This document shows positions 2 to 57,804 of a DNA stretch of 64,000 bases, in pieces (positions within the stretch are counted from its first letter, which is position 1; each line of letters begins with the position of its first letter). Both the position numbers and the translations under genes were made by a program. Source of the DNA: Bdellovibrionales bacterium (GTDB lineage Bacteria; Bdellovibrionota; Bdellovibrionia; Bdellovibrionales; JAUICD01). The DNA lies in assembly GCA_965197425.1 (NCBI GenBank), contig CBDANC010000015.1:397013-461012 (forward strand), given 5' to 3'. The notes under the pieces are model-generated. The model was given only the letters and a program-made list of their open reading frames with translations. It did no database searches and was not told the origin of the DNA.

Positions 2-787
2 CCATACATTGACCTAACCAACCTAAATGAAACTGATACAAAAGATGATATTAAAAAACTTGTAAATAAGGCTTTGTCTTTAAAACATAAAAATTTACCA
101 TCTGTAGCAAGCATTTGTATCTATCCTTCCATGCTAAAGTTTGCAAAAGAAAGACTGGATGGAAACTCCACTTGTAGTGAAAACTCCGCTCGTAGTGGAT
201 ACTCCACTGGTAGAAGTAGCAAAATCAATGTGGAAACTCCACTGGTAATTGCTACAGTTACGGGTGGTTTTCCCTCCGGAAAACTTAACTTAGAATCAAA
301 GTTGATAGAAACTAAAGAAGCAATCCAAATGGGGGCAGATGAAATTGACTTTACTATTTGTAGAGACTACTGTAAGCCTTCCGAAGCCCAAAAATTATTT
401 GATGAAATTTACAATATAAAAAAACTAGTGGGAAGAAGACCTCTAAAGGTAATTTTGGAGACAGAAGAGCTACATAGCTATGACAAAATAAAATTGGCAT
501 CCAACATAGCACTCTATGCAGGTGCTGACTTTATCAAAACCTCAACAGGAAAAATTAAAGGTCCACTTGATCACAAAATAGCCTCTTTTCTAGTTATTAT
601 GGATAGCATCCTAGATTTCTACAACCAAACAAAAAAGCAAGTTGGTATAAAGGTATCCGGAGGTATTAGTGGGGTGGATACAGCCATGCTCTTTTTTAAT
701 ATGGTACAAACACAAATGGGGGAAAAATGGGTAAGCCCCAAATTTTTTAGAATAGGCTCAAGTAAACTTATGGATAATATTGTTTAG
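2..787 (+). CDS. deoC: Deoxyribose-phosphate aldolase, 5' end outside the window
   Basis: The frame is open from position 2 (PYIDLTNL...). Motifs GADEID, LKVILET, ADFIKTSTGK, GIKVSGGI and FRIGSS are typical of DERA. Carries an ~30-aa repeat-derived insertion at 158-246. Confidence 0.93.
   Translation, partial: PYIDLTNLNETDTKDDIKKLVNKALSLKHKNLPSVASICIYPSMLKFAKERLDGNSTCSENSARSGYSTGRSSKINVETPLVIATVTGGFPSGKLNLESKLIETKEAIQMGADEIDFTICRDYCKPSEAQKLFDEIYNIKKLVGRRPLKVILETEELHSYDKIKLASNIALYAGADFIKTSTGKIKGPLDHKIASFLVIMDSILDFYNQTKKQVGIKVSGGISGVDTAMLFFNMVQTQMGEKWVSPKFFRIGSSKLMDNIV
158..246 (-). repeat. Four copies (3 tandem + 1) of the 18-bp mini-palindrome, in reverse orientation, inside deoC
   Basis: Units 158-175, 176-193, 194-211 and 229-246 are reverse complements of the ACCAGTGGAGTTTCCACT unit seen in nusB, secF and tyrS. 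Confidence 0.85.
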
Positions 788-907
788 ATCGGGCAATCGG
801 GCAATCGGGCAATCAGTCAATCAGGCAATCGGGCAATCGGGCAATCGGGCAATCAGTCAATCAGTCAATCAGGCAATCGGGCAATCGGGCAATCGGGCAA
901 TCAGGCA
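788..907 (+). repeat. 15 x 8-bp tandem repeat (ATCGGGCA / ATCAGTCA / ATCAGGCA), 5' flank of four-helix-bundle element copy 1
   Basis: Counted directly; starts immediately after the deoC stop codon. Confidence 0.97.
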
Positions 908-916
908 AACTGGCTA

Positions 917-993
917 TGGTCTCCTTTTTTTAAAAATATTTCCTCCCAGATAAAAACCATGGAGCAAATATTTTTTTCAAAAAAAGGAGACTA
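917..993 (+). promoter_or_regulatory. Long leader hairpin occluding the Shine-Dalgarno sequence of the four-helix-bundle gene
   Basis: GTCTCCTTTTTTT (919-931) pairs with AAAAAAAGGAGAC (979-991); inner stem AAAAATATTTCCTCC / GGAGCAAATATTTTT. Confidence 0.7.
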
Positions 994-1001
994 TATACAT
1001 T

Positions 1002-1295
1002 ATGAAAAATTTTAAAACATATCAATTAGCTGTTCAGTTCTACAATAATTCTAAAGGGATATACCTAAAAGAACCACTCAAAAATCAATTCCAAAGAGCT
1101 ATATTAAGCATAGTATTAAATTTGGTTGAAGGTAGTGCAAAGTTCAGTAACAAAGAAAGACGAAAATACTACAGAACCAGTTTAGGCTCACTTAGAGAAA
1201 CACAAGCTATACTAGATCTCATAGATCATAAAAAGCTAACAGAAGAAGCAAGTAGGTTAGGAGGGTATCTTTACAAACTTTGCAAGAATACATAA
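1002..1295 (+). CDS. Four helix bundle protein (23S rRNA-IVP / bAvd-like family)
   Basis: 97 aa; YQLA...L..QF.RA..SI.LN..EGS...F...SLGS.RE....L pattern of the TIGR02436/PF05635-type family; AGGAG RBS. Confidence 0.88.
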   Translation: MKNFKTYQLAVQFYNNSKGIYLKEPLKNQFQRAILSIVLNLVEGSAKFSNKERRKYYRTSLGSLRETQAILDLIDHKKLTEEASRLGGYLYKLCKNT

Positions 1296-1356
1296 TCGAG
1301 GAACCAGGCAACGGATCACAGATTCCAGATAACGGATCCCCGATCTAGTCGGGCAA

Positions 1357-1821
1357 TTATGAGCGTCCAGATCGGATCTTAGATTGCATTCGAGCCATGA
1401 GACTTACAGCCATTCTTTCATGAGCCTCACACATTCTAAGCTCATCTTTTCTATAACTTTTTTGACTTGGTGTTAGAGCACCCATTTCTATTTCCATTTC
1501 ATAATCCAGCTTGTTGGACCTGATGCTTTCCAACTCCTTTGATTGCTGCTTAAACAACTTCACAAGACCACTATTAGGAGCAATCTCAAGCCACTCCTGC
1601 TTGCTCTTATACCAGCTAACCATTCTTAGAAATCTTGCCTTGTTCTTGGCCAGAGTAAATTTAGGATAATCAGACTCATCTAGATGTAGTATGTTATCCT
1701 GTCTCCACCTCTCCTTGTTCTTATCATCACTCCAAGGATTCTGTTTGTCCCAAGGCTTTACCTTCTTTGACAGAGAATCCGTTACAGAAGGATCCCCTCT
1801 ATCCGTTTCGATATTATCCAC
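1357..1821 (-). CDS. Hypothetical protein
   Basis: 154-aa ORF with a purine-rich RBS (GGGAGAGAG) before GTG; no recognisable motif. Confidence 0.7.
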   Translation of the reverse strand: MDNIETDRGDPSVTDSLSKKVKPWDKQNPWSDDKNKERWRQDNILHLDESDYPKFTLAKNKARFLRMVSWYKSKQEWLEIAPNSGLVKLFKQQSKELESIRSNKLDYEMEIEMGALTPSQKSYRKDELRMCEAHERMAVSLMARMQSKIRSGRS

Positions 1822-2035
1822 GCTCTCTCTCCCTTTTAAACACTACGGCTAACCTAAAACAAGGCCTGCCAAAGGGCCATAAAACATTATTCTCCTACCA
1901 AAAAGCAAGGTAACACTACCATAATGCCATTAACATATCAATCAACTGACAGTGAATAATTTACATTTGTTGGTCATTTATTAGGTATATAAAAATTACT
2001 ATATATTTATTCTTTGCATTTTGTTACGAAGCACC

Positions 2036-3676
2036 ATGGTTTTGAAATTATCTGGTGTTTTGGTTTTTATTTTTGTTGGTGTGGCCAGTTATATTTATGG
2101 CCAGAGTGGTTCTGATGTAGTGGGTAATTGGTATAGTGTGTTGCCCCCTGTATTTGCGGTTACTGTAGCTCTTATTACCAACAATGTTTTTATAAGTTTA
2201 ATTGGTGCGGTTCTTCTTGGTGCTTTTTTAATCAAGATGCCTTCTGGTGAATTTCTTACGGGTGTACTTGATTCACTCTACAAGTTTTTTAGTATTCCTA
2301 TTCTGGAGTTAACAGATACTTTTAATCTTCAGGTCATTGGTTTTGTTGTATGTGTTTTGGCTTTGATCTCTGTTGTTATAGTTTCTGGTGGTTTAAAGGC
2401 TGTGATTCGGTACATATCGGTTTATGCGAATGGCAGAAAGTCTACTAATTTTGTAACCTTTGTTTTGGGAATTTTGATGTTCATAGATGATTATGCCAAT
2501 ACTATGTTGGTTGGCTCTTCTATGAGAGGAGTCTATGATGCAAATAAAATTTCGAGGGAAAAGCTGGCATTCATAGTTGATTCAACAGCAGCTCCCATTG
2601 CTGGGCTTGTTTTTATAAGTACTTGGGTTGGGTATGAAGTTGGTCTTTTGGGTCAGGTAGCGGGTGATTTAACCCTAGGGGTAGGGGGTTTTTCTATGTT
2701 TTTTGATGCAGTAATTTTTAGATTTTACTGCATATTTACATTGGTGTTTGTGTTGGTGAACATATTTTTGGATAAAGATTTTGGACCAATGGCCTCTGCT
2801 GAGGCCAGTACCACACAGGTTCCTGTTAGTAAAGAAATTCAATCAGACAAAAATGCTGTGCCTAGTGTTATGGTTGCGCTAGTGCCAATGGTGTTTTTGG
2901 TTTTGTATGTATTTATGGGTCTGTGGATAGATGGTGGAGGAGGTAAGGTTATAAGTGAAAAGTCCGTTTTATCTCTTCTTAGTTTTTCTGATTGGAAAGA
3001 TGTAGTATCCGCTTCAGAAAATAATATATTGATACTTTTTCATGCCTCTCTATACGGGCTTATTTTGGCTATGATTTTGGGAATATCTATCTCAAAGGTT
3101 CATGTAAGAAATATCTTTAAGGGCGCACTACGTGGTGTTAAAAAGAGTATGCTTCCTATTTCTATCCTAGTGCTGGCATGGTCTATTAAAACAGTTTGTA
3201 AAGAACTTGAGACAGGACCGTTTTTGGTATCAATCTTGGCAGACTCTATATCTCCAGTTTGGTTTCCTATAATACTTTTTGTTATCGCCGGATTAACAGC
3301 ATTTACTACCGGTACTTCTTGGGGAACCATGGCTATTCTCATTCCATTTGCAATTCCATTGGCAAGTGCATTGGACGGAGGAGCTTACGGGCTGGTTACC
3401 ATACTTTCCGTGGCTACTATTTTAGACGGTGCAATTTTTGGGGATCACTGCTCTCCGATTTCAGACACAACAATTATGAGTTCGATATCAAGTGGATGTG
3501 ATCATATGTCACATGTAAAAACCCAAGCACCTTACTCAGTGGTTATAGCATCTGTAGCTTTGATTGGTTATTACTTATCTAGTATGGTCCATTTTGTAAT
3601 AACATTTGCTTTAGGCATTGCTTTAATATTTCTGTTACATAAATATCTATGTAAGCTCTGGAACAAAAATAGTTGA
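2036..3676 (+). CDS. Na+/H+ antiporter NhaC family transporter
   Basis: Multi-TM protein; motifs FIDDYAN, SREKLAFIVDSTAAP, TGTSWGTMAIL and GAIFGDHCSPISDTTIMSS. Confidence 0.9.
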   Translation: MVLKLSGVLVFIFVGVASYIYGQSGSDVVGNWYSVLPPVFAVTVALITNNVFISLIGAVLLGAFLIKMPSGEFLTGVLDSLYKFFSIPILELTDTFNLQVIGFVVCVLALISVVIVSGGLKAVIRYISVYANGRKSTNFVTFVLGILMFIDDYANTMLVGSSMRGVYDANKISREKLAFIVDSTAAPIAGLVFISTWVGYEVGLLGQVAGDLTLGVGGFSMFFDAVIFRFYCIFTLVFVLVNIFLDKDFGPMASAEASTTQVPVSKEIQSDKNAVPSVMVALVPMVFLVLYVFMGLWIDGGGGKVISEKSVLSLLSFSDWKDVVSASENNILILFHASLYGLILAMILGISISKVHVRNIFKGALRGVKKSMLPISILVLAWSIKTVCKELETGPFLVSILADSISPVWFPIILFVIAGLTAFTTGTSWGTMAILIPFAIPLASALDGGAYGLVTILSVATILDGAIFGDHCSPISDTTIMSSISSGCDHMSHVKTQAPYSVVIASVALIGYYLSSMVHFVITFALGIALIFLLHKYLCKLWNKNS

Positions 3677-4165
3677 TCGGACAACCAAGTAGCAGTCAAT
3701 CGGGTGTCTGATTAGATCTGTGATCTGGCACTCAGGGATCTGATATCTGCATCCGGGATCTGGCATCAAGCATCCGTAATATTCTTAATTTTTCCAAAAA
3801 AATTTCCTCCCATCAAATGATGGTAAGGAGGAAATTTTCTATGAAAAAATTAAAAACATACCAACTAGCTAAAAAGTTTTATCAAAACTCAAAAAAACTC
3901 TGCTTAAAAGAACCACTAAAAAATCAGTTCCAAAGAGCTACCTTAAGCATTGTACTAAATATCGCAGAGGGGAGTGCCAAACCAACAATAAAAGAAAGAA
4001 AAAGATTCTATGTAATAAGCCTAGGATCGCTTAGAGAAGTACAAGCCATACTAGATCTGATAGAACACAAAAACCTAATGGAAGAAGCAAATATACTCGG
4101 AGGATTTTTATACCAATTATGGAAAAATACATGATCCCAGGATGCCAGATCCCAGATCTGGTATT
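3677..4165 (+). mobile_element. Putative four-helix-bundle mini-element, copy 2
   Basis: Perfect 13-bp inverted repeat GGGATCTGGCATC (3755-3767) / GATGCCAGATCCC (4141-4153); GATCTG-rich flanks; SD-occluding hairpin at 3799-3838. Confidence 0.6.
3841..4134 (+). CDS. Four helix bundle protein (paralog 2)
   Basis: ATG at 3841 after AGGAGG gives 97 aa, colinear with 1002..1295. Confidence 0.88.
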   Translation: MKKLKTYQLAKKFYQNSKKLCLKEPLKNQFQRATLSIVLNIAEGSAKPTIKERKRFYVISLGSLREVQAILDLIEHKNLMEEANILGGFLYQLWKNT

Positions 4166-9436: not shown

Positions 9437-9625
9437 GATTGGCATCAGTGTACAGAGCTGGGCAACCACGAGTCAAAAAAAAGTAAGCATAGCTTCCTTA
9501 TTTTTTATCTCGTTCGGAAGACCTTTAGTGGAAACAGGCACTCGTCCAAAAAATGTTCTGTCTTCACTTGTACTTCGTATGCTCGTTACGCCAGTCCATT
9601 TATTTGGCCTCACGAGGCTCACCTT
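9437..9625 (+). repeat. Intergenic REP-like mosaic repeat (module A plus a second hairpin)
   Basis: CAGAGCTGGGCAACCAC...AAAAAAGTA.GCATAGC.TCCTTATTTTT...GTTCGGAAGACCTT, shared with 23668, 38836, 45381 and 52743. Confidence 0.85.
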
Positions 9626-13697: not shown

Positions 13698-14042
13698 TCA
13701 AGATGCTTTTTTTGTTCTGTATCTAGAAACTTTCTTGCTCTTTATCTTAGAAAGTTGCCCCAGAGCTTTTTCAATAGCACCATCTACTGTTTTGTATAGG
13801 TTAGAGTTTTGGTTTCTAGAAGCCAGATTTATACCAGGACCTCTTACCACAACCGTAGCTTTATACTGGTGACGCTGTACGCCTAAAGATAACAATGCAC
13901 GCACACGAAGGCTTTGCATCTTATTAATTCTATCAAGCTGACCCAAGATATAACTCTCAATGTTTGATCTATTTAAAACTATGCTTGGTTGGATATTAAT
14001 ATCACTCACATTATCCACAAGATTGGAAGTTTGATAACTCAT
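13698..14042 (-). CDS. Ribosome hibernation factor HPF/RaiA family protein
   Basis: Size and pattern (NLY..VD.A.EK...QL.K.K.K) match the sigma54 modulation/S30EA family. Confidence 0.6.
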   Translation of the reverse strand: MSYQTSNLVDNVSDINIQPSIVLNRSNIESYILGQLDRINKMQSLRVRALLSLGVQRHQYKATVVVRGPGINLASRNQNSNLYKTVDGAIEKALGQLSKIKSKKVSRYRTKKAS

Positions 14043-21107: not shown

Positions 21108-21250
21108 TTGATCAATTAGTCGGGCAATCAGGCAGTCGGGCAATCAGGCAAACAGGCACACCGGCACACCGGCAATCCGGGATCTGGTGAATTGATTAAA
21201 TTTTCTAAAAAAATTTCCTCCCATCAAAGATGGTAAGGAGGAAATTTTTT

Positions 21251-21544
21251 ATGAGAAAATTTAGAACTTATCAGTTAGCGGTTCAATTCTATAATAATTC
21301 TAAGAATTTATACTTAAAAGAACCACTAAAGAATCAATTTCAAAGAGCTACCCTAAGCATTGTACTCAATTTAGCAGAGGGAAGTGCCAAACCTACAACA
21401 AAAGATAGAAGAAAGTTCTACAGAACCAGTTTGGGCTCGCTTAGAGAAACACAAGCTATACTGGATCTCATAGATCATAAAAAGCTAATAAATGAAGCCA
21501 ATATACTAGGAGGATATCTTTACAAACTGTGTAAGAATACATAA
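21251..21544 (+). CDS. Four helix bundle protein (paralog 3)
   Basis: ATG at 21251 after AGGAGG gives 97 aa, highly similar to copies 1 and 2. Confidence 0.88.
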   Translation: MRKFRTYQLAVQFYNNSKNLYLKEPLKNQFQRATLSIVLNLAEGSAKPTTKDRRKFYRTSLGSLRETQAILDLIDHKKLINEANILGGYLYKLCKNT

Positions 21545-23635: not shown

Positions 23636-23667
23636 TTATCCTTTAAAACCTTAGAACTTAGTGTGGA

Positions 23668-23760
23668 GGGATCAGCATCGTGTCCAGAGCTGGGGGCAAC
23701 CACTCGGCAAAAAAAAGTAGGCATAACCTCCTTATTTTTTGCCTAGCTTAGAAGACCTTT
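23668..23760 (+). repeat. Intergenic REP-like repeat, module A
   Basis: GGGATCAGCATCGTGTCCAGAGCTGG..GCAACCACTCGGCAAAAAAAAGTAGGCATA.CCTCCTTATTTTTTGCCT...GAAGACCTT, between convergent genes. Confidence 0.9.
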
Positions 23761-23763
23761 GAA

Positions 23764-24846
23764 CTAGTTGTTTAATTCTTCAATTAAATTGCTAACAACT
23801 CTTGCTGTTCGTCTTCCTATTATTCTCTTTTTAGATTGTTCAAGAGCAAATGCTCGCATATCCTCTACACTGTCAAACTCATCTACAATTTCTACTCCAA
23901 GTAAAGTCTCGATGGCATCTTCCAAAGTAACCAAGCCTGTAGTTTGCCCTAATTTGTTTCTTGCAATAAAAATGTGTGATTGCTTTTTGATAAAAAGACT
24001 CATAATCGACCCAACAGACTGTTCATCAGGAACATAGTCAATTTTATTCGAAATATCTCTTAAATACTTTTTGTTTCCCTCGTCTTTTCCATAAATATCT
24101 AAAACTTCATATCTTAAAACCATGCCTGTAATGTTATTAAGATCTTTTTCATAAATCGGTATTCTAGAAAAAGGAATCTGTCCATATTTTTCAACCGTAG
24201 TGTCAATTGACAAATTTTGAGACAGAGCAATTATAACAGATCTAGGTGTCATTATGTCTTTTACATATATACGATTTAGCTTTAGTAGATTTTTTATAAT
24301 ATTTCTCTCTTCGTCCTTAATTGTACCCTCTTCCTGACTAATTTCAGCAGAGGCAATAAGCTCGTCTCTTGTAAATATAGGAGTATTCTTCTTACCAAGA
24401 GCTACCATATCAGAGAGACGTTCTAGTAACCATACCAATGGATACAATAATAAAATCAAGTATTTGATAATAAATGAGGCTGGTGTTGCTATCGTTTTCC
24501 AAAACATAGCACCTATTGTTTTAGGTATTATTTCAGCAAAAACTAAAATAAACATGGTTAACACACCAGATACAACCGCCACCATTTCACTACCATAGAT
24601 ATTAAGAACATGAGCACCTATTATCGATGCACCCAGTGTATTTGCAACTGTGTTTAAAGTAAGTATGGCAGCTAAAGGTTTATCTATTTCACTTTTCAGG
24701 TCGTAAAGTACCTTACCAGATCGCGCATTTCTACTCTGAAGATCTCTTATAAATGAGTCCTGCACAGAGAGCATGGTTGACTCCAAAAGCGAACATACAA
24801 ATGAAATAGCAATTACCAGGAAAAAATATAAGATTAATAAGCTCAA
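23764..24846 (-). CDS. CNNM/DUF21-CBS (hemolysin/CorC family) protein
   Basis: SF.CSLLES, AAILTLNT.AN, EIIPKT, IMTPR, FSRIPIY and GLVTLED.IE.LLG.EIVDE. Confidence 0.92.
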   Translation of the reverse strand: MSLLILYFFLVIAISFVCSLLESTMLSVQDSFIRDLQSRNARSGKVLYDLKSEIDKPLAAILTLNTVANTLGASIIGAHVLNIYGSEMVAVVSGVLTMFILVFAEIIPKTIGAMFWKTIATPASFIIKYLILLLYPLVWLLERLSDMVALGKKNTPIFTRDELIASAEISQEEGTIKDEERNIIKNLLKLNRIYVKDIMTPRSVIIALSQNLSIDTTVEKYGQIPFSRIPIYEKDLNNITGMVLRYEVLDIYGKDEGNKKYLRDISNKIDYVPDEQSVGSIMSLFIKKQSHIFIARNKLGQTTGLVTLEDAIETLLGVEIVDEFDSVEDMRAFALEQSKKRIIGRRTARVVSNLIEELNN

Positions 24847-37371: not shown

Positions 37372-37887
37372 ATGCAACACTTAGTACATCAAAATAAGAA
37401 AAGAACAAATCAGAGGAAGTCTAGAGAGCTTGCCCTCCAAATGCTATTTAAGTTGGATTGTCTTGGTAGTAAAAAAGCACTGAAGGAAGTATCAAATAAA
37501 GAGATATCACACGATGATGAAAATACCAGTGGAGTTTCCACTAAAAAAGATGATTTAAACTTCTTAGTTTATAAAAATTTGTTAAGAGAGCTTATACAAG
37601 TTGATGGATCTTGTTGGGAGGAAGCAGATCATCTGGTAAAAGGTGTGTTGGGTAAAAAGGATTTGCTAGATCAAATGGTAGACCAAAACATGAATGATGC
37701 TGTTAGGCTTTCTTACGTGGATCGGAATATTTTAAGAATTGGTTTGTATGAAATGTCTATTGGTAAGAAGCCTAACATAGTAATAAATGAGGCCATAGAG
37801 GTAGCCAAGACCTACTCAACTACGGAATCTAGTAAGTTGGTAAACAGGGTGTTGGATCAAGCCAAAACTTTTGCAGGGGATAAATGA
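37372..37887 (+). CDS. nusB: Transcription antitermination factor NusB
   Basis: RKSRELALQ.LF, VDRNILR.G.YE and V.INEAIE.AK.YS...S...VN.VLD; contains one TSGVST unit at 37525-37542. Confidence 0.92.
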   Translation: MQHLVHQNKKRTNQRKSRELALQMLFKLDCLGSKKALKEVSNKEISHDDENTSGVSTKKDDLNFLVYKNLLRELIQVDGSCWEEADHLVKGVLGKKDLLDQMVDQNMNDAVRLSYVDRNILRIGLYEMSIGKKPNIVINEAIEVAKTYSTTESSKLVNRVLDQAKTFAGDK

Positions 37888-38393
37888 CCATCGCCAGTAG
37901 AGTCTCCACTTCCATGAATGAAGGGTGTATTTTAAATCGTAGAAATGCATTGAGGGCTGGAGCACACCTTTGGGTTATCTCTGATTTAAAAACTTCTGGC
38001 TGGGCTAGGAAGATCAACTGGTATCTTAATTTTCAAATTTATAAATTTGAAAAAGTAAAAGAGTTAAGTAAAGATCAAATAGCTTCTTTAAAGGATGCAG
38101 GGTTTGAATTTACAAATATTAGAAGTAAAAGTAGTAGTCTTTTAATATCTTCTGAGAAACTTTTAACTAATAAAAAAACCTTGATGGTAGAGTTTAGTGA
38201 TATAAATTCTTGGGTTGAATTGGCAAAAAAATACTGGGAAGGTTTAAACAAACCAACTTTGAGATTTTTTACTCCAGATGCGGTAAATGTGGATGAGTTA
38301 CAGTCACACCTAAGTGATTTTAACAATCACGGGCAGAGTCTCTGCCACGGGCGGAGTCTCCGCGTTTCTGTGGTTGAGCCTTATAGAGTGTAG
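37884..38393 (+). CDS. Hypothetical protein
   Basis: ATGA-coupled to nusB; contains 18-bp palindrome variants at 37893-37910 and 38329-38364. Confidence 0.7.
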   Translation: MTIASRVSTSMNEGCILNRRNALRAGAHLWVISDLKTSGWARKINWYLNFQIYKFEKVKELSKDQIASLKDAGFEFTNIRSKSSSLLISSEKLLTNKKTLMVEFSDINSWVELAKKYWEGLNKPTLRFFTPDAVNVDELQSHLSDFNNHGQSLCHGRSLRVSVVEPYRV

Positions 38394-38399: not shown

Positions 38400-38810
38400 A
38401 TGCAATTAGAGAGTTTAAACTATCTAAAAGAAGTTTTGGGGGTTAAGCATATTCCAAAACCAAAATCTGTAGCGAGCGTTAGAATTACTTTGTTAGCTTA
38501 TTTTGATTGTGAAGATGTGGTGCAGGTTAGATATTTTGAAAAGTTGAAAAATCTTCTTGAGGAGTATGGTGTTTTGGGTTCTGTGTTTGTAAATAAAGAT
38601 GATGTTAAAAAGAGTGGTTTGATTTTGTCTTTAGGAAGGCCAGCATCAAACGAAGTAAAGTTTGATGGATTACATGGTATATGGAAAAAGGTAGGAAATC
38701 AGATGATTATGTGGACACATCCGGTAAGTGAATTTGGGGATAAGAAGATAAAGTCTGTTGTGTGGAGGGATGTTAAGCGTGCTATTAGAATGTGTGGTGT
38801 TAGTGTTTAG
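38400..38810 (+). CDS. Hypothetical protein (weakly UDG/DNA pol III psi-like ending)
   Basis: Operonic spacing; THP......K..VWRD.K resembles the C-terminus of UDG-fold proteins. Confidence 0.6.
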   Translation: MQLESLNYLKEVLGVKHIPKPKSVASVRITLLAYFDCEDVVQVRYFEKLKNLLEEYGVLGSVFVNKDDVKKSGLILSLGRPASNEVKFDGLHGIWKKVGNQMIMWTHPVSEFGDKKIKSVVWRDVKRAIRMCGVSV

Positions 38811-38811
38811 C

Positions 38812-38923
38812 CTCATTAGGAAGACCTTGTGTAACGGGATCGGCATCGTGTCCAGAGCTGGGCAACCACTCGGCAAAATAAGTAGGCATAGCCTACTTAT
38901 TTTTGCCTCATTGGAAGACCTTT
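38812..38923 (+). repeat. Intergenic REP-like repeat, module A
   Basis: Two GGAAGACCTT ends bracket GGGATCGGCATCGTGTCCAGAGCTGGGCAACCACTCGGCAAAATAAGTAGGCATAGCCTACTTATTTTTGCC. Confidence 0.9.
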
Positions 38924-40210: not shown

Positions 40211-40232
40211 GAAAAAATATAAACATTGCATC

Positions 40233-40297
40233 AAGGTCTTCCGAACGAGGCAAAAATAAGGAGGCTATGCCTACTTATTTTGCCGAGTGGTTGCCCA
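40233..40297 (-). repeat. Intergenic REP-like repeat, module A (reverse, truncated)
   Basis: AAGGTCTTCCGAACGAGGCAAAAATAAGGAGGCTATGCCTACTT...GCCGAGTGGTTGCCCAG. Confidence 0.9.
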
Positions 40298-40474
40298 GTT
40301 TTCTGTGTAATTTATTGATATATTGTAAGATTAGACTGTAACAACATACATTACATTTTGTACTCCACCAATTAAATACCCGTGCCGTAGGTAACTAACC
40401 CATGGCCTTGCTTGTCTGTAACAGTCAGGGGAAATAGTAAGGGTATAAAGCTTAGGGACTTAGGTACTGGTGAA

Positions 40475-40534: not shown

Positions 40535-43500
40535 ATGAAACCTGGTGTATCGTTAGCAGTTTATTGTGTGGCTTTGGCTTTGAGTCTTGTTGCATATCAA
40601 AATTGTGCAGATGTGACTTTCAGTTCACTGCAGTTATCTTCGAAATCAGGCCTTGGGCTGGATATGAATCCTCGTTGTATCGGTGATGATAGCAGTGTTT
40701 CATTTACTGTTGATGCAGATAATGATTATGTATTTAGGTGTAAGCAAGCTACTGATATCTATTTTACAGATTGCAGCAACTATATTTTGGATAATGGTAT
40801 TGCCACCATTGAAACTCATGGTAACACAGTTACCTTTAGTGAGTTACAGAACGATTCTTACGCTCTAATCATACAAGTCGAAGATCAGGAAGGCCAAATA
40901 GATACCTTCAGTGCAAGTATATCAAGGTGTCCTCCTGCTCCTGTGTGTTCTGCACCTCAAATTGAGTGTAATGGAAATTGTATAAATCCAGCTTGTACAA
41001 CTGGTTCGTGTGGTACAGGTAAGACTTGTCAAAATCCAGGATCTTGTAATGCTAAGTGCGTAACCAAGACATGTCCTCAGGGTCAGACTTTGTGTAATGA
41101 TGGAAGTTGTAAGACTCCAGCTTGTACAACTAGTTCTTGTGGTACAGGTAAGACTTGTCAGAACGCTGGTACCTGTTCTGCTAGATGTATAACTAAGACA
41201 TGTTCAAGTGGCCAAGTTCTGTGTAACGGTGTTTGCAAGGCTCCAACTTGTGCAGAAAACAGTGCTACTTGTACGACATGTCCTGATGGTCAGTGTGGTC
41301 AACCAAGCACAGGTCAGACTTGCGGTGACAGGAAGAATTCTTGTCAAACTTGTACTAATGATAATAGCTGCAGTGAGAGGCCGAGGTCTAAAACTATTAC
41401 CTGTGGTAGTGGAAGTATGTCTTCGTATCCTTACACAACCAGACAAAACCCTGACGGGGGAAGCAAAACGGAATGTGGGACCACATGCTACAGTAAAGGT
41501 GCTTGTGCGAACTCATGTTCTAGCAACGGTGATTGTGGGTGTGGTGGAACATGTAATAGTGGATGTTGTTCCAGCACAGGGCCTAGTTGTTCTGGAAATA
41601 CTCCACACTGTTCAAATGGCACATGTGTAGAGTGTACAAGTTCTAATCAATGTTCTGGAACTTGTAGTAGTTGTATAAATGGAAGTTGTTCTAGTGGTCA
41701 AACTTGTGGTGAGAGGAAGAACTCTTGTCAAGTTTGTACTAATAATAATAGCTGTAGTGAAAGGCCAAGAACTAAGAATATTACCTGTGGTAGTGGAGGT
41801 ATGTCTTCATATTCTTACACAAGTGTACAAACTCCCGATGGAGGAAGTAAGACGGAGTGTGGAGCCACATGTTATAAAAGGGGAGCTTGTGCAAATCAGT
41901 GTACAAGCGATACAAGTTGTGGATTTAGCAACACTGCTGCTTGTGGTGCTAGATGTACCACTGGTAGCAATGGCTGCAGAAGTTGTACTTCTGGTACTAG
42001 GTGTGATTCAACTTGCCAGAGTTGTAGTGGTGGAAGTTGTGTAACAGATAGTTGTGGTTCAGGCTATTTTGCTCTCTATCCCGATAGAAACGCTAGTTCT
42101 GGAAGTACCAGCAGAAGTTGTCGTGGTAGGACTTGTCATAAACCTCAGGCTTGTACAGATGAATGTTCAAGTAGTAGTAGCTGTACCAAGTGTGGGGCCT
42201 CATGTACCACCGGTTCTGATGGTTGTAAGGATTGTACTGGAGGTACTACATGTAATTCGACTTGCCAGAGTTGTAGTGGTGGAAGTTGTGTAACAGATAG
42301 TTGTGGTTCAGGCTATTTTGCTCTCTACCCTGATACGAATGCCAGTTCTGGAAGTACCAGCAAAAGTTGTGGTGGTAGGACTTGTCATAAACCTCCAACT
42401 TGTACAAATCAGTGTACAAACGATGCAAATTGTGGGTTTAACAACACCGCTACTTGTGGTGCTAGATGTACCACTGGTAGCAATGGCTGCAGAAGTTGTA
42501 CTTCTGGTACTAGATGTAATTCGACTTGCCAGAGTTGTAGTAATGGAAGTTGTGTAACAGATAGCTGTGGTTCAGGCTATTTTGCTCTCTATCCTGATAG
42601 AAACGCTAGTTCTGGAAGTACCAGCAGAAGTTGTCGTGGTAGGACTTGTCATAAACCTCAGGCTTGTACAGATGAATGTTCAAGTAGTAGTAGCTGTACC
42701 AAGTGTGGGGCCTCATGTACCACCGGTTCTGATGGTTGTAAGGATTGTACTGGAGGTACTACATGTAATTCGACTTGCCAGAGTTGTAGCGGCACGAGTT
42801 GTGTAACGGATAGCTGTGGTTCAGGCTACTTCAGTGGTTATTCTCATAATAGTAGTCAGGGCGTTGGTTCTACCTCAAGAAGATGTTCTGGTAAAACTTG
42901 TTGGTCTGATAAAACATGTGAAAACACTTGTACAAGTCCTTCTCAATGTCCAAAATGTGGAGCGAGTTGCACAACTGGAAGTAATGGATGTAAATCTTGC
43001 ACTGGTGGAACCACATGTTCAGGTTCTACACCATACTGTAGTGGTGGAAATTGTGTAGAGTGTACATCTTCTGGTCAATGTCCTGGGACATGTAACACTT
43101 GCAGTAGTGGTACTTGTAGTGGTGGCACGACTTGTAGTGCTAACTCTTGTCAGGTGTGTAGTAGTACTTGTGGTTCTCCGAGGTCTAAGACTTGTAGTGA
43201 CTTTGGACATCAATCCTCTAGCAACGGTTTATCATGTCCTGAGACTGTGAGACCTGGTTGCAATTTGACATGTTATAGAGAGGGTACAACTTGTAGTGCT
43301 AATTCTTGTCAGGTGTGTAGTAGTACCTGTGGTTCTCCGAGGTCTAAGACTTGTAGTGACTTTGGACATCAATCCTCTAGCAACGGTTTATCATGTCCTG
43401 AGACTGTGAGACCTGGTTGTAATTTGACATGTTATAGAGAGGGTACAACTTGTAGTGCTAATTCTTGTCAGGTGTGTAGTAGTACTTGTGGTTCTCCGAG

Positions 43501-44137
43501 GTCTAAGACTTGTAGTGACTTTGGATATCAATCTTCTGGCAGTGGTTTATCATGTCCTGAGACAGTAAGGCCTGGTTGTAACTTGACATGTTATAGAGCA
43601 GGAGCAGGTCAGACTTGCGGTAATCGAATTAGTAGCAGCAGATGCGAATCATGCACCAACCCTAGTAGCTGCACTGAAACTCCAAAGAGTCGCTGTAATG
43701 CATTTGACGGCGAGTTATGCTGCAATGGAACATGCAAAACGCCTCTTTGCCAGGATGATGACGAGTGTTCTCCTGGATATAACTGTATAAATGATGGAAT
43801 GTGTAACGCCTTTTGTGAAGCAAGTGGCTGTCCTCCGTACAGTGAGTGTACACAAAGGTCAGATTGCCTTAATAATAATAATCACTGTGGAGGTAATTGT
43901 TCGGGTTGTGCATGCACTGGCGGTCAACAATGTTCAGGTGGCCAACGATGTGTAAACGGAAGGTGTCAAACTATCACTCAAACTACCACGACCACTATCA
44001 CAACAACTACAAGCGGGAGCGGTAGTCCTTGTACTAATCCTTGTAATTGGGATAGAGATTGTACTGGTGCCGGAGAACCAAAATGTCGTAACGGTTGTTG
44101 TGGGGCGGCTGATGATGGGCCAGGGACTCAATTTTAA
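40535..44137 (+). CDS. 1200-aa cysteine-rich repetitive surface lipoprotein (YQNC signal)
   Basis: AYQNC signal and a ~110-aa N-terminal domain, then >1000 aa of C/S/G/T-rich repeats with 129-, 384-, 513- (249+264) and 159-bp periods. Confidence 0.88.
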   Translation: MKPGVSLAVYCVALALSLVAYQNCADVTFSSLQLSSKSGLGLDMNPRCIGDDSSVSFTVDADNDYVFRCKQATDIYFTDCSNYILDNGIATIETHGNTVTFSELQNDSYALIIQVEDQEGQIDTFSASISRCPPAPVCSAPQIECNGNCINPACTTGSCGTGKTCQNPGSCNAKCVTKTCPQGQTLCNDGSCKTPACTTSSCGTGKTCQNAGTCSARCITKTCSSGQVLCNGVCKAPTCAENSATCTTCPDGQCGQPSTGQTCGDRKNSCQTCTNDNSCSERPRSKTITCGSGSMSSYPYTTRQNPDGGSKTECGTTCYSKGACANSCSSNGDCGCGGTCNSGCCSSTGPSCSGNTPHCSNGTCVECTSSNQCSGTCSSCINGSCSSGQTCGERKNSCQVCTNNNSCSERPRTKNITCGSGGMSSYSYTSVQTPDGGSKTECGATCYKRGACANQCTSDTSCGFSNTAACGARCTTGSNGCRSCTSGTRCDSTCQSCSGGSCVTDSCGSGYFALYPDRNASSGSTSRSCRGRTCHKPQACTDECSSSSSCTKCGASCTTGSDGCKDCTGGTTCNSTCQSCSGGSCVTDSCGSGYFALYPDTNASSGSTSKSCGGRTCHKPPTCTNQCTNDANCGFNNTATCGARCTTGSNGCRSCTSGTRCNSTCQSCSNGSCVTDSCGSGYFALYPDRNASSGSTSRSCRGRTCHKPQACTDECSSSSSCTKCGASCTTGSDGCKDCTGGTTCNSTCQSCSGTSCVTDSCGSGYFSGYSHNSSQGVGSTSRRCSGKTCWSDKTCENTCTSPSQCPKCGASCTTGSNGCKSCTGGTTCSGSTPYCSGGNCVECTSSGQCPGTCNTCSSGTCSGGTTCSANSCQVCSSTCGSPRSKTCSDFGHQSSSNGLSCPETVRPGCNLTCYREGTTCSANSCQVCSSTCGSPRSKTCSDFGHQSSSNGLSCPETVRPGCNLTCYREGTTCSANSCQVCSSTCGSPRSKTCSDFGYQSSGSGLSCPETVRPGCNLTCYRAGAGQTCGNRISSSRCESCTNPSSCTETPKSRCNAFDGELCCNGTCKTPLCQDDDECSPGYNCINDGMCNAFCEASGCPPYSECTQRSDCLNNNNHCGGNCSGCACTGGQQCSGGQRCVNGRCQTITQTTTTTITTTTSGSGSPCTNPCNWDRDCTGAGEPKCRNGCCGAADDGPGTQF

Positions 44138-45285: not shown

Positions 45286-45472
45286 GATCAGCTGTGAAGT
45301 CCACCAGGAAGAAAGAGCCACTTGGCAAAAAAAAGTAGGCATAGCCTCCTTATTTTTTGCCTCGTTCGGAAGACCTCTGTGGGAATGGATCAACATCGTG
45401 TCCAGAGCTGGGCAACTCACTCAGCCAAAAAGCAAACAAGTTCGCTTTATTGGCCTCGTTAAGAAGACCTTT
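45286..45472 (+). repeat. Intergenic REP-like mosaic (module C + 2 x module A)
   Basis: GCTGTGA.GTCCACCAGGAAG...GAGCCACTTGGCAAAAA (also at 50424), then two GAAGACC-terminated units. Confidence 0.88.
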
Positions 45473-47558: not shown

Positions 47559-48602
47559 TTGAGAAACACACGGGTGGAGTATCCACTTGATTTTGTAGGA
47601 AAAAATACTCTGTTTGGGGTCATCTCCACGGTGCTGGTTTTACTTTCAGGGTTTTCTATATTTTACAATGGATTAAACTACGGGATTGACTTTGCAGGTG
47701 GAGTGGAAATGCAGGTTCGCTTTAACGAAGAAGTTCAACCTCAAGATATTAGAAACTTGCTCTCCAAACTAGAGATAGAGTCAAGTCAAGTGCAACAATT
47801 AGGATCAGGCACTGAGTATTTGATTAGATTTGAAGATCGTCAAACAGACGGAGCAAATTTGGCAGAAGAAACAAAAACTGAAGTTACTACCACCAGTGGA
47901 GTTTCCACTACGAGTGGAGTTTCCACTGACAAACTAACGGGTGAGGAAGCCATCAGTGGTGAAGTTACAGGTGATGAAGAAGAAGGTGTAGAAGTAAGTG
48001 GAACTGTAGCAGAGCTTAGAGCTGCTATTTTGAGTGAATTTTCAGGTCCGCCAGAGATACTTAGGGTTGATCAGGTAGGTCCTAGAATTGGTTCTCAATT
48101 AAAGAGAAATGGTATGCTTGCTATATTTTATAGTTTAATTTTGATTTTGATTTATGTTGGTCTGAGGTTTGATTACAACTTTGCACCAGGAGCTGCTATT
48201 TGCTTATTTCATGATTCTATTATCACTCTGGGTGTCTTTTCTTTTTTAGGTAAAGAGATCAATGTTCAAATTCTAGCTGCAGTCCTTACTATTATTGGTT
48301 ATTCCTTAAACGACACAATAGTTATATTTGATAGAATCCGTGAAAACATCTCTTTGTATAAAAATAATAAACTGCCTTGGATAATCAACAGATCTATTAA
48401 TGATGTAATCTCCAGAACCTTACTAACTTCTATTACCACCCTAGTGGCTGTGGTTTCTCTATATGTATTGGCTGGAGGTGTTATATCTGACTTTGCATTT
48501 GCTCTAGGTATTGGAGTTATTATTGGAACATACTCATCCATATACATTGCATCACCTCTTGTTATTCAATTTGAAAAGTTGAAATCTAAAAAAAGAGTCT
48601 GA
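47559..48602 (+). CDS. secF: Protein translocase subunit SecF
   Basis: GIDF.GG, VGP.IG, IGYSLNDTIV.FDRIRE and GTYSSI.IA; TSGVST x2 inserted at 47892-47927. Confidence 0.97.
   Translation: MRNTRVEYPLDFVGKNTLFGVISTVLVLLSGFSIFYNGLNYGIDFAGGVEMQVRFNEEVQPQDIRNLLSKLEIESSQVQQLGSGTEYLIRFEDRQTDGANLAEETKTEVTTTSGVSTTSGVSTDKLTGEEAISGEVTGDEEEGVEVSGTVAELRAAILSEFSGPPEILRVDQVGPRIGSQLKRNGMLAIFYSLILILIYVGLRFDYNFAPGAAICLFHDSIITLGVFSFLGKEINVQILAAVLTIIGYSLNDTIVIFDRIRENISLYKNNKLPWIINRSINDVISRTLLTSITTLVAVVSLYVLAGGVISDFAFALGIGVIIGTYSSIYIASPLVIQFEKLKSKKRV
47892..47927 (+). repeat. 2 x 18-bp mini-palindrome in frame within secF
   Basis: ACCAGTGGAGTTTCCACT ACGAGTGGAGTTTCCACT. Confidence 0.92.
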
Positions 48603-50115: not shown

Positions 50116-50155
50116 CCCTTAATTCTAGCATATCAAAATAAAAAATCCTAGCTTC

Positions 50156-50505
50156 AAGGTCTTCCGAATGAGGCAAAAAATAAGGAGCCTTCGCCTATTT
50201 TTTTTTGCCGAGTGGTTGCCCAGTGCTGGAACAAGATTCTGATCCCGTTTCTTAAGGTCTTCTAAGCTAGGCCAATAAGGTGAACTTGTTTACCTTTTTT
50301 CAATTGGCTCACGGGATAAATCTTTATATTATCCAATTGAAATAACCTCCCTGCGGTCGGTTTTGGACTAGCGAGTTGTCCAGCTATTTGTGTGGTAAGT
50401 ATCTTGCTCTATGTTAAGAGATTGGCTGTGAGGTCCACCAGGAAGGAGCCACTTGGCAAAAAGGAAAGCGAAGCTTCCCTTATTTGCCTCACTAATGGAC
50501 CTTTG
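50156..50505. repeat. Intergenic REP-like mosaic (A-, B-, C+)
   Basis: Reverse module A at 50156-50250, reverse module B at 50255-50363, forward module C at 50424-50505. Confidence 0.88.
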
Positions 50506-52742: not shown

Positions 52743-52836
52743 GAAGGAACAGGATCGGCCTCGTGGTAAGAAGCTGGGCAACCACTCGGTAAAAAAGTAG
52801 GCATAGCCTCCTTATTTTGCCTCGTTGGAAGACCTT
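52743..52836 (+). repeat. Intergenic REP-like repeat, module A
   Basis: AGCTGGGCAACCACTCGG.AAAAAAGTAGGCATAGCCTCCTTATTTTGCCTCGTTGGAAGACCTT. Confidence 0.9.
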
Positions 52837-53824: not shown

Positions 53825-53870
53825 AGGCAGTTTAAATATTGAACACATTTGTTTAATATTTAAACTGCCT
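53825..53870. terminator. Strong 21-bp inverted repeat (terminator or fused element ends)
   Basis: AGGCAGTTTAAATATTGAACA-CATT-TGTTTAATATTTAAACTGCCT, flanked by A- and T-rich tracts. Confidence 0.5.
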
Positions 53871-54359: not shown

Positions 54360-54411
54360 AATTAAAGCACCAATGTTATGTTGGTGTTATGTAAATTTAG
54401 GTAAGTTAAAA

Positions 54412-54978: not shown

Positions 54979-55001
54979 ACGAATAGTTATGAGGATATAT
55001 T

Positions 55002-56552
55002 ATGAACATTATTTATGTATTATCTGGGTCGTTGGCCACATTATTGGTTACGACTCTTTTGAAGAAGGTCAATCGTACAAAAAGGCGCAGGAGGCTTGGT
55101 AGGGAAGCTGATACAATTTTATCCAGGGCAAAACAAGAGGCCAGGGAAATTGAAAAAAGAGCTGCAAATTTTGAGCGAAACGTAAAGAAAAATGCTGAAA
55201 GAGATACTAATAGACAAAGATCCAAGCTATCAAATGAGTTCAAAAATCTAAAGCTAAAAGAAAATCGCTTAAATGAAGCTTTGAATAAGAACAAGCTCCA
55301 CTTTCAACAAAAAGAACAATCTTTAAAAGCTGAAAGGGAGCAATTGGAAATACTTAAAAGCCAAATTTCTGCCAAGCAGGACGAGCTTAGAGAAAAAACT
55401 ATTGAGCTTGCAGATAAGTTGGAAAACATCTCTGGTATTTCAAAAGAAGAGGCCAAACAAAGTGTCATAGAGGCTGGCAAAGAAGAAGCAAAAACCCGGG
55501 CTTCCAAGATTGCTGTGCAGATAGAAAATGAAGCCAAGGAAGATGCAGAAAAAAAAGCCAAAAAAATTATAAGCCTAGCACTTGCAAGATATGCTGGGGA
55601 GTATTCTGCTGAAAGAACTACATCTGTAATTGAGTTGGAAAGCGAAGAGATGAAGGGAAAAATTATAGGAAGAGAAGGCAGAAACATAAGAGCATTAGAA
55701 ACGGTGTGTGGGGTTGACTTAGTCGTTGATGATACTCCCGAATTGGTTTTGATATCAGGTTTTGATCCAGTAAGAAGGGAGGTTGCCAAAAGAAGCTTAG
55801 AAAAGCTAATGGAAGATGGTAGAATTCACCCGGCTAGAATTGAAGAAATTGTAGGTAAAGTAAAAAGTGAATTATTTAAAAGCATAAAAAAAGACGGAGA
55901 AAAGTTAGCTCTCGAATTAGGTATATCGGGTTTAAACCCGGAACTTATAAAATTAGTAGGAAGTTTAAAGTATAGAAATTCCTATACTCAAAACAACTAT
56001 GTACACACTAGAGAGGTTGCGTACTTTGCAGGTATTATGGCAGCAGAATTAGGGGTTCCAATCAAACCTGCTATTAGAGCAGCACTTTTACATGACATAG
56101 GAAAGGCATTGGATCACTCTATAGAGGGAAGTCATGCTGTGATAGGTGCTGACTTTGCTAAAAGGCATGGAGAGACAGAGGAAGTTTGTCATGCCATAAG
56201 GGCTCATCATGAGGATGAAAAACCAAGAACCGCAATTGCATTTATAGTAATAGCCTCTGATGCTTTATCTGGCGCAAGACCTGGTGCTAGAAGGCAGACA
56301 ATGGAAAGTTATGTAAAAAGGCTAGAAGATCTAGAGTCTATTGGAAATAGTTTTGATGGGGTCATCAGAACATTTGCAATTCAGGCAGGCAGGGAGGTCA
56401 GGGTACTTGTAGAGGGCAGTCGTGTTACTGATGATCAGGCTTTGATGTTAAGTAGAGATATTGCAAGAAAAATTGAAAGAGAAATTAATTTTCCAGGTCA
56501 AATTAAAGTCACTGTTGTAAGAGAAACCAGGGCTGTTGAACATGCAAGATAA
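55002..56552 (+). CDS. rny: Ribonuclease Y
   Basis: N-terminal TM + coiled coil, KH domain KGKIIGREGRNIR, HD domain LLHDIGKA, and AIQAGREVRV. Confidence 0.97.
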   Translation: MNIIYVLSGSLATLLVTTLLKKVNRTKRRRRLGREADTILSRAKQEAREIEKRAANFERNVKKNAERDTNRQRSKLSNEFKNLKLKENRLNEALNKNKLHFQQKEQSLKAEREQLEILKSQISAKQDELREKTIELADKLENISGISKEEAKQSVIEAGKEEAKTRASKIAVQIENEAKEDAEKKAKKIISLALARYAGEYSAERTTSVIELESEEMKGKIIGREGRNIRALETVCGVDLVVDDTPELVLISGFDPVRREVAKRSLEKLMEDGRIHPARIEEIVGKVKSELFKSIKKDGEKLALELGISGLNPELIKLVGSLKYRNSYTQNNYVHTREVAYFAGIMAAELGVPIKPAIRAALLHDIGKALDHSIEGSHAVIGADFAKRHGETEEVCHAIRAHHEDEKPRTAIAFIVIASDALSGARPGARRQTMESYVKRLEDLESIGNSFDGVIRTFAIQAGREVRVLVEGSRVTDDQALMLSRDIARKIEREINFPGQIKVTVVRETRAVEHAR

Positions 56553-57804
56553 ACAACAATTATTAGAGTTAAAGAAAGGGGTAGTAGATTTAATATCAGA
56601 GGAAGAATTGTTAGAAAAAATACAAACCAGTTTGAAAACAAAAAAGCCTCTTAGGATTAAGGCTGGGTTTGATCCTACTAGTAGCGATCTTCACCTGGGG
56701 CATTTGGTTTTACTAAACAAGCTAAGGCAATTTCAGTTGTTTGGACATACTGTTATTTTTCTCATAGGGGATTTTACTACTACTATAGGTGATCCTTCGG
56801 GAAGAAACAGCACCAGGCCTACTTTATCTAGAGATAAGATAGAGGAGAATTCGAAAACATACCATGATCAAGTGTTTAAGGTATTGGACAAAAACAAGAC
56901 AGAGGTTCGTTATAACAAAGAATGGATGGATGGTTTTACACCGCCTGACTTTATAAATCTTATGAGCGGGTACACCGTATCTAGGATGGTTGAAAGAGAT
57001 GACTTTAAAACCAGACTGGAAAAGGGTGTGGGGTTATTTATTCATGAGTTAGTATATCCATTGATTCAGGGTTACGATTCTGTTGCTCTAAAGTCTGATG
57101 TGGAGATAGGGGGTACAGATCAAAAATTTAATTTATTAGTTGGTAGAGATGTACAAAAAGCAAATGGTCAAAAACCTCAATGTGTTATGACACTACCTTT
57201 GTTAGAGGGAACTGATGGGGTTAGAAAAATGTCCAAAAGTTTCAATAACTACATTTCATTGAAGGACTCACCTACACAGATGTTTGGAAAAATTATGAGT
57301 ATTCCTGATGATATGATTTTAAGATACTTTGAGCTTTTAACAGATCTAACAACTTCGGAGATCAACCAACTTAAAGTTGATTTAGATTCTGGTACAAGTG
57401 GAGTATCCACTACGAGTGGAGTATCTACTACGAGTGGAGTATCCACTAAAAATCCAAGGGATGTTAAGGTGATGTTGGCTGAAACTTTGGTTTCTATGTT
57501 TTATGCAAAATCGGATGCCACAAATGCCAAAGAGGAGTTTTTTAAGGTATTTAGCAAAAGGGAACTTCCTACTGATATACCTCAGGTTGATTTTGGTCAG
57601 GGTAATGTTTGGATATGTAAGCTGTTGTTTCAGATTGGGTTGAGTTCTTCTAGTAGTGATTCCAGAAGACTGATACAGGGTGGTGGTGTGAAATTAAATG
57701 AAAAAAAAATTAATGATTATAATTTAAAGCTAGATTTGAAAAAAGGAGATACACTGTTATTGTCTGTAGGTAGAAGAAAATTTGTTAAGGTAATGGTAAA
57801 GTAG
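56542..57804 (+). CDS. tyrS: Tyrosine-tRNA ligase
   Basis: GFDPT..DLHLGH, GGTDQ.FN, KMSKS and S4 domain; TSGVST x3 inserted at 57394-57447. Confidence 0.98.
   Translation: MQDKQQLLELKKGVVDLISEEELLEKIQTSLKTKKPLRIKAGFDPTSSDLHLGHLVLLNKLRQFQLFGHTVIFLIGDFTTTIGDPSGRNSTRPTLSRDKIEENSKTYHDQVFKVLDKNKTEVRYNKEWMDGFTPPDFINLMSGYTVSRMVERDDFKTRLEKGVGLFIHELVYPLIQGYDSVALKSDVEIGGTDQKFNLLVGRDVQKANGQKPQCVMTLPLLEGTDGVRKMSKSFNNYISLKDSPTQMFGKIMSIPDDMILRYFELLTDLTTSEINQLKVDLDSGTSGVSTTSGVSTTSGVSTKNPRDVKVMLAETLVSMFYAKSDATNAKEEFFKVFSKRELPTDIPQVDFGQGNVWICKLLFQIGLSSSSSDSRRLIQGGGVKLNEKKINDYNLKLDLKKGDTLLLSVGRRKFVKVMVK
57394..57447 (+). repeat. 3 x 18-bp mini-palindrome in frame within tyrS
   Basis: ACAAGTGGAGTATCCACT ACGAGTGGAGTATCTACT ACGAGTGGAGTATCCACT. 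Confidence 0.93.

Follow-up and report, generated by a model that had tools for sequence, protein, structure and literature searches.

Rickettsia palindromic elements (RPEs) are described as gene-less palindromes of ~150 bp that lie in frame in unrelated housekeeping genes and encode a conserved peptide (PMC10969869). Repetitive extragenic palindromic (REP) sequences and REPINs, associated with the transposase RAYT (TnpA-REP), carry an unpaired 5′ motif, have some copies in open reading frames (ORFs), and include variant stems with G-T pairs (PMC3733652, PMC8266576, PMC3116915). Small dispersed repeats (SDRs) exist in Nostoc punctiforme (PMC2884548, PMC3116915). Here, we describe an 18-nt hairpin, the 18-mer, from a Bdellovibrionales bacterium; it was found in a 64,000-nt stretch of DNA, referred to as the window (contig CBDANC010000015.1, positions 397,013 to 461,012 of the forward strand; assembly GCA_965197425.1), and followed through the whole host genome. 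The 18-mer is a real, recently active, and very small selfish hairpin, kin to known SDR/RPE-type elements. What is new is its target rule, a C at position −4 (the fourth base 5′ of the insertion point) on one strand, seen both at insertion points and at the element's own 3′ end. A literature search, with most subscription papers outside it, found no report of this 18-nt element.

Like RPEs, the 18-mer is palindromic, gene-less, and in frame in unrelated housekeeping genes; unlike them, it is only 18 bp long, is read in five frames and both orientations, inserts into itself in tandem, and has a defined −4 C target. The SDRs of N. punctiforme, the subject of work by Elhai et al. in 2008, are reportedly 21 to 27 nt long, with in-frame copies in genes, compensatory changes, and insertion into their own copies. 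Set beside that description, the 18-mer is similarly ~20 bp or less, structured, dispersed as well as tandem, lineage restricted, and without an encoded mobilizer; it differs in its 18-nt length, in its phylum, and in the lone C at −4 on one strand. With REP sequences it shares a short hairpin that has an unpaired motif on its 5′ side, a single active strand, the presence of some copies within ORFs, and variant G-T stems. Unlike them, it lacks a GTAG or CGTC tag (GTAG occurs only on the opposite strand across tandem junctions), no RAYT was found with it, its arrays lie in ORFs (63 of 73) and not mainly in extragenic DNA, and its units stand head-to-tail instead of in inverted doublets; C|T and C|A targets account for 5/73 and 6/73 sites. 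It is also unlike a miniature inverted-repeat transposable element or other insertion sequence (IS) derivative, as its ends are asymmetric and it has neither terminal inverted repeats nor target site duplications.

The 18-nt unit and its copies

The host genome (G000; 1.60 Mb in 15 contigs, ~35% GC, 99% complete, assembly not closed) was compared with a congeneric reference genome (G001) and with contigs of other sequencing runs (X3, X4, and X5; depth 2 to 12, from two studies besides the probable source), the latter among the indels listed. Named homologs of its TyrS indicate a place in the Bdellovibrionales. Sequence logos defined a unit of 18 nt, YACNR-GYGGA-GTW-TCCRC, in which a 5-nt leader (YACNR) precedes a 5-bp hairpin with a GTH loop; the unit begins with Y and closes with CCAC, and the hairpin ends exactly at its 3′ end. 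An earlier note, made from the window alone, had placed the unit one base to the right and given it a 6-bp stem. The logos, together with empty sites at 47569 and at two paralogous positions, moved the register one base left, and only 47 of the 117 units have Watson-Crick bases at the proposed sixth pair.

A profile scan returned 111 units at a score of ≥16 genome-wide and none in the reversed or complemented genome; the count is not that expected from k-mer frequencies. Grouping took 117 units scoring ≥13 and was then extended; the control yielded 3 matches at a score of 12, and a few weak members may be chance matches. The result was 123 units in 79 arrays (52 single, 15 double, 7 triple, and 5 quadruple) with units head-to-tail, or 73 non-paralogous arrays once 6 paralog duplicates were removed.

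The stem covaries. Over the 117 units, pair 7-17 is TA in 87 and CG in 20, and pair 10-14 is AT in 92, TA in 8, and GC in 4; the loop G is invariant (117/117). In an alignment of 22 units, 97% of cells pair and four of the five pairs are altered on both sides, in rows hand-picked to span variants, a choice that favors this covariation result. C>T changes on the 3′ arm exceed G>A changes on the 5′ arm (24 versus 6), suggesting that the GTW-loop strand is the one that is folded or single stranded. A structure-based scan also found a sister subfamily, B (YACNR-CYGGY-GTT-RCCRG, with a C-G outer pair; peptides STAGVT/STTGVA), with 14 units in 7 arrays, of which the array in gcvP is an exact 12-amino-acid (aa) insert. 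Its arrays in the host genome are as follows:

C13:34215, subfamily B
C13:37137-37172, subfamily B
C13:42942, subfamily B
C13:87168-87206, subfamily B
C13:97660-97713, subfamily B
C14:199327-199362, subfamily B
C12:17113, subfamily B

A 13-bp core is present in 54 copies in G000 and in none in G001, with 3 more in all across the other 29 genomes searched, and the full pattern has 86, 0, 1, 0, and 1 matches in five genomes of the family. A strict tandem pattern had no match in a species-genome collection from which the bacterium's own genome was possibly left out; a loose tandem pattern, run on half the collection, gave 116 loci, and only 1 of 137 matches examined, in DNA of 83% GC, had two perfect hairpins. 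A single metagenome match was rejected as a GC-rich, proline-rich coding repeat, and viral contigs gave one single-unit match, at chance level. A tRNA-fragment origin was likewise rejected (best match, 9/13 bases among 35 tRNA/tmRNA genes), and an Rfam scan of the window matched only a tRNA.

All copies named in the earlier note are present in the window: its 15-mer has 12 matches with ≤2 mismatches, where 0.32 would be expected, and none of 100 shuffled sequences gave as many. Its list lacked the unit at 47569-47586 and the two at 38328-38363, and the four deoC copies that it placed at 158-246 resolve into three units at 159-212 and one at 230-247, on the minus strand. The copies and their host genes are as follows:

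1-787, plus strand: deoC host gene, 3′ part (start lies before the window); Pfam DeoC
159-212, minus strand: array of three units in deoC, antisense reading DGNSTC-SENSAR-SGYSTG; C at −4 of the left junction
230-247, minus strand: single unit in deoC, a separate insertion 17 bp from the 159-212 array; read VETPLV; C at −4
37372-37887, plus strand: nusB host gene; Pfam NusB
37524-37541, plus strand: single unit in a variable loop of nusB; TSGVST; A at −4
37892-37909, plus strand: degenerate single unit at the 5′ end of ORF 37884; C at −4
38328-38363, plus strand: two degenerate units near the 3′ end of ORF 37884
47559-48602, plus strand: secF host gene; Pfam SecD_SecF_C
47569-47586, plus strand: single unit at the secF 5′ end; read RVEYPL
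47891-47926, plus strand: two units in a variable periplasmic segment of secF; TSGVST twice; C at −4
56536-57804, plus strand: tyrS host gene; Pfam tRNA-synt_1b
57393-57446, plus strand: three nonidentical units that add exactly 54 bp to tyrS between DSG and KNPRDVK; C at −4

In a TyrS structure model, insert residues 288 to 300 have a pLDDT (predicted local distance difference test) score of <50 against a mean of 91.8. This is the sole low-confidence segment, and it is modelled as a disordered loop between two helices, in agreement with the loop position that the note had proposed.

Insertion, distribution, and target choice

The 18-mer has inserted recently, precisely, without target duplication, and in either orientation, and some copies are still polymorphic. 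Comparison with G001 orthologs covered 18 arrays in 11 genes. Eight of the 18 correspond to exact multiples of 6 aa (tyrS, 18; gcvP, 18 and 6; obg, 6; gltA, 12; ychF, 12; proS, 6; glnS, 6), two of the eight being counted between anchor residues; the remaining arrays sit in variable loops or termini, including four terminal sites that could not be aligned. Inexact differences were a net 16 aa at the third gcvP site and ~8 aa for 12 expected at the 3′ array of ORF 37884; beyond these 11 genes, topA shows a net 5 aa. Across both deoC arrays, which are read in different frames, the G001 ortholog is 26 aa shorter for 24 expected; the secF segment is 36 aa longer than in G001, of which the units account for 12, and nusB too has extra residues beyond its unit. 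A TyrS homolog (P0001) that is 96% identical over aligned columns lacks all three units. With relatives lacking the units in place of orthologs sharing their residues, and with exact 6-aa multiples, the earlier idea of a mobile, frame-preserving hairpin that adds predicted peptide segments stands.

Six paralogous empty sites within G000 are precise, and two of them, like the empty site at 47569, fix the register unambiguously. In both X3 and X5 the unit at 47569 is precisely absent (18 bases), together with an A>C difference at 47565, so that the empty allele has C at −4 and the filled allele has A. At 38328, 18 bases (one unit) are absent from X3, X4, and X5. In gcvP, one array is 18 bases shorter in X5 and a second has 36 bases skipped in that run; at a third, an X4 contig seems, from piece coordinates, to have 36 extra bases. 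The X3 contig spans the nusB site with no indel there among those listed. A TA or other target duplication, hinted at by tyrS and nusB, was rejected across all sites: gaps are exactly 18n, and 36 of the 73 junctions allow no sliding whatsoever.

In 63 of 73 cases an array falls within an ORF of ≥100 aa, as do 87% of random positions, so that coding DNA is neither preferred nor avoided. The earlier observation that exact units lie only inside ORFs therefore holds within the window, where it reflects coding density, and does not extend to a preference. Specific colonization of coding sequence or of essential genes falls with it: hosts include ProS, GlnS, TyrS, TopA, FumC, GcvP, GltA, YchF, Obg, NusB, SecF, and DeoC, and many others are large surface, unannotated, or unknown proteins. 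The topA gene has one unit in its C-terminal repeat region, with two units just upstream (L025:11531-11566 and 13752-13769; C13:19530 and 21751). Fifteen of 62 arrays fall in the first tenth of their ORF, which may reflect tolerance or wrong start calls.

Five of the six frames are read in long ORFs (VDTPLV, 22; TSGVST, 19; GYSTR, 10; VEYPL, 10; WSIH, 5), the stop-containing frame is not (0), and sense and antisense readings of the unit are about equal. The use of five frames and both orientations, with a covarying stem, supports the suggestion that the conserved entity is the DNA hairpin and not the peptide. Selection of the units for a function, whether as a peptide or as a DNA or RNA signal such as an uptake or protein-binding site, is highly improbable. 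It could accommodate the unused stop-containing frame and the variable positions 1, 4, 7, 10, and 13, which are third codon positions in both of the commonest frames. Against it, the units encode five different peptides, lie in both orientations, and include noncoding copies; compensatory changes replace amino acids, strains differ in their copies, the congener has none, and the units arose through insertion instead of point mutation. Survival in genes is explained by the 18-nt length, which preserves the frame, and by five of six frames being open, and, most likely, the 18-mer is a selfish passenger that the host tolerates.

Arrays occur in clusters: 46 of 79 lie ≤1 kb from another, versus ~8 expected (maximum of 21 in 1,000 simulations), as do 38 of 73 after de-duplication. 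Neighboring arrays share orientation in 18 cases and are opposite in 13. They resemble each other no more than arrays far apart do (permutation P = 0.49), so the clusters look like zones receptive to insertion rather than the products of local hops; local copying from neighbors is not supported. GC skew in G000 tracks gene strand. Three of 73 arrays lie within 500 bp of convergent gene ends, versus ~10 expected, for sites that are clustered and not independent.

Clustering, the copy number differences of arrays among strains, and the closer similarity of units within an array (2.7 mean differences versus 4.06 between arrays) are also what one might see with no strand-transfer enzyme at all. 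Template switching or gap filling at forks or nicks would then copy units, slippage or unequal recombination would expand arrays, and the −4 C would mark an initiating nick, possibly made by TopA. Quasi-palindrome correction could, moreover, create compensatory stems without selection. This account is quite unlikely: junctions of the 73 arrays show no microhomology, the ends are constant to the base, and neighbors have the lack of resemblance just described. Only 2 of the 44 pairs of neighboring units are identical, and identity is rare even in the very recent tyrS array, which speaks against simple slippage.

At the targets, one base is strongly favored. C occupies −4 at 53 of 73 insertion points, versus a local background of 16.5% (P ~5e-26), and does so on the element's strand alone; its counterpart for the opposite strand, G at +4, stays at background (9/73). 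The earlier note had described neither this rule nor the clustering, and it had proposed no mechanism. C at −5 and G at +1 are depleted (1/73 each), and the flanks are mildly AT-rich (0.70 versus 0.65). The rule holds with one array per 2-kb cluster (34/48) and in held-out subfamily B (5/7; P = 0.002). The element's own 3′ end has C at −4 (C15) in 69 of 73 last units, which explains arrays grown by self-insertion. No covariation between element and target survives 80 to 84 tests, and guide-target pairing was rejected (best P of 0.017 among 80 tests).

Candidate mobilizers

All characterized bacterial topoisomerases I are described as having a C four nucleotides 5′ of the cut, read by R169, R173, and Y177 (PMC3467081), and their sites as a single C at −4 on one strand (PMC11999072). 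The E. coli motif in vivo is a lone C in an AT-rich patch, TCNTTA/T, with the enzyme 5′ linked and a free 3′-OH (PMC9352719). The 18-mer targets resemble such sites in their one-strand C at −4 and AT-rich context, and 5′-phosphotyrosine chemistry would leave no duplication. This match to the published rule suggests that the cell's own topoisomerase I likely cuts and joins the element. G000 has a single type IA topoisomerase with an intact active-site region and the motif RR-x-x-DR-x-x-x-Y (RRILDRLVGY, with equivalents of R169, R173, and Y177).

Other mobilizers were sought by family. Y1_Tnp (PF01797) had 0 matches in G000 or G001 (the control matched in 6 of 14); tyrosine recombinases (PF00589), including XerC/XerD, had no match in either genome, with matches in all 14 controls; and RVT_1, IS110, and Cas1 were not found in family searches of the G000 assembly, as opposed to its whole proteome. 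A small GIY-YIG gene was not found in G000, where the only GIY-YIG match is a 612-aa UvrC-type frame.

The absence of a Y1 match bears on a second candidate, in which the 18-mer is a REP-like nonautonomous element moved by a divergent, unassembled, or recently lost HUH transposase (Y1/RAYT or IS200/IS605 type), with the leader as guide and the loop G contacted by the enzyme. An unpaired motif 5′ of a short hairpin, the lack of duplication, and one active strand, as the C>T excess indicates, fit such an element, and the invariant loop G has a parallel in group 3 RAYTs, which are described as selecting a loop base (PMC8266576). Most tandem junctions read C|T, the RAYT cut, and Y1 genes are present in two family members (G003 and G004); an IS200/605-like end sequence occurs on contig C11, probably a contaminant. 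The leader, however, is neither GTAG nor CGTC, only 5 of 73 targets are C|T, one target base is strongly specified with no guide-target covariation found, and neighboring arrays occur in both orientations. We consider this candidate unlikely.

A third candidate is another hairpin-recognizing nuclease or recombinase acting in trans, for example a GIY-YIG enzyme of the Ssn type, one encoded by a retron or phage, or the product of the genome's 18 four-helix-bundle ORFs. Ssn nucleases are described as cutting single-stranded DNA (ssDNA) near the NTS/SRM hairpin repeats (PMC11893778), which, like the 18-mer, are high-copy hairpin repeats, there acted on as ssDNA; unlike in that system, the small GIY-YIG gene is missing from what was found in G000. 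The genome does hold further repeat families without a transposase, one of them with similar leader-plus-GTA hairpins at its end. It also holds the 18 small ORFs, which are nearly identical to one another; PF05635 matches both of the two that were scanned. Arrays do not lie near these ORFs, however (5 within 3 kb; 4.9 expected), the sole GIY-YIG match is of the UvrC type, no reverse transcriptase was found, and the viral contigs gave only the chance-level match noted above. Such an enzyme is decidedly unlikely.

We commit, at somewhat less than even confidence, to the topoisomerase, because of the −4 C rule, the presence of a C-reading enzyme, and the failure to find any of the mobilizer families searched for. 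The 18-mer is a gene-less 18-nt element, mostly inserted just 3′ of CNNN, that host TopA may cut and join as ssDNA. TopA would nick after CNNN at both ends of the unit on the folding strand and stay on the unit's 5′ phosphate. The hairpin would hold both ends together and shield the excised piece, whose closed form would be a small dumbbell. At its 3′ end the element looks like what TopA leaves on the upstream side of a cut, so that at another nick it could take that strand's place; replication of the intact strand would then leave the genome one unit richer. Since its own 3′ end would be a valid target, arrays would grow through repeated self-insertion. The scheme would be formally like IS200/IS605 peel-and-paste, with the enzyme's C pocket in place of a guide.

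Several points weigh against TopA. The enzyme is known for relaxing DNA. At 20 of 73 sites (~27%), the nusB unit among them, there is no C at −4, and because three of the six empty paralog sites also lack it, some of these exceptions are real; the E. coli enzyme is described as strictly requiring the C, and its T|A cut preference is weak at the targets (11/73). E. coli TopA cleavage is described as lower within highly expressed genes and higher upstream, and the 19 of 73 arrays within 1 kb of divergent promoters match the 19 expected, again for clustered, nonindependent sites. TopA of G000 looks ordinary beside that of G001, and C15, being base-paired in the hairpin, could be read only after melting. 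A universal enzyme does not explain the lineage restriction, the invariant loop G, or the leader AC, and a mobilizer on a plasmid or phage, or one recently lost, would escape the 15-contig assembly. Intermolecular strand transfer by TopA is part of the general background to this proposal; the literature search, within the limits given above, found no report of such transfer or of a TopA-moved repeat family.

Other repeats in the genome and implications

Other repeats lie in the same genome. The ~100-aa four-helix-bundle ORFs (window 1002-1295, 3817-4134, and 21230-21544, among the 18 copies genome-wide) are carried by repeats of ~300 bp that have tandem 8-mers at their flanks (e.g., window 786-905); they look mobile, with no transposase found. 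A longer intergenic family (~45 to 85 bp), often in inverted pairs, ends in a similar leader and 5-bp GTA-loop hairpin with other stems; it is a possible parent or sibling of the 18-mer, and its ends lack C at −4 in the same register. It was located at the following positions:

C12:110453-215395, longer intergenic family
C14:348319-348406, longer intergenic family
C15:87351-87594, longer intergenic family
Window ~40360 (C15:437373), longer intergenic family

Modular intergenic repeats occupy window positions 9466-9533, 23653-23767, 38821-38903, 40212-40299, 45318-45412, 50135-50364, 52747-52818, and 62163-62591; a 95-bp copy at 38810-38904 is absent from three other runs, and one copy, at C12:93995, has an 18-mer inside it, with four empty copies elsewhere. 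Window 40535-44137 encodes a 1,200-aa cysteine-rich repeat protein with internal repeats of 129 to 264 bp, which the syntenic stretch of G001 lacks and which the other runs cover poorly. Contig C11, with second copies of ribosomal protein genes, a transposase-like ORF, the IS200/605-like end, and no 18-mer, is probably a contaminant. About 30 ankyrin-repeat-like paralogs, judged by sequence and BLAST, lie on C13 and C11.

The recent activity and base-exact ends of the 18-mer, with a target signature equal to the topoisomerase I rule, make it testable how very small gene-less palindromes such as SDRs and RPEs spread without a linked transposase. We put forward, with more doubt than confidence, that the 18-mer is minimal selfish DNA with no genes and no transposase, whose 3′ end would mimic a topoisomerase I product and which housekeeping TopA would excise and insert; this route could explain other orphan in-frame tiny palindromes. 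The one-base prediction, C at −4, is applicable to other families of tiny palindromes. If TopA is uninvolved, the 18-mer is a clean but familiar case of selfish in-frame palindromes, in a bacterium many of whose essential proteins (TyrS, ProS, GlnS, TopA, Obg, and SecF) tolerate 6 to 24 extra encoded residues.

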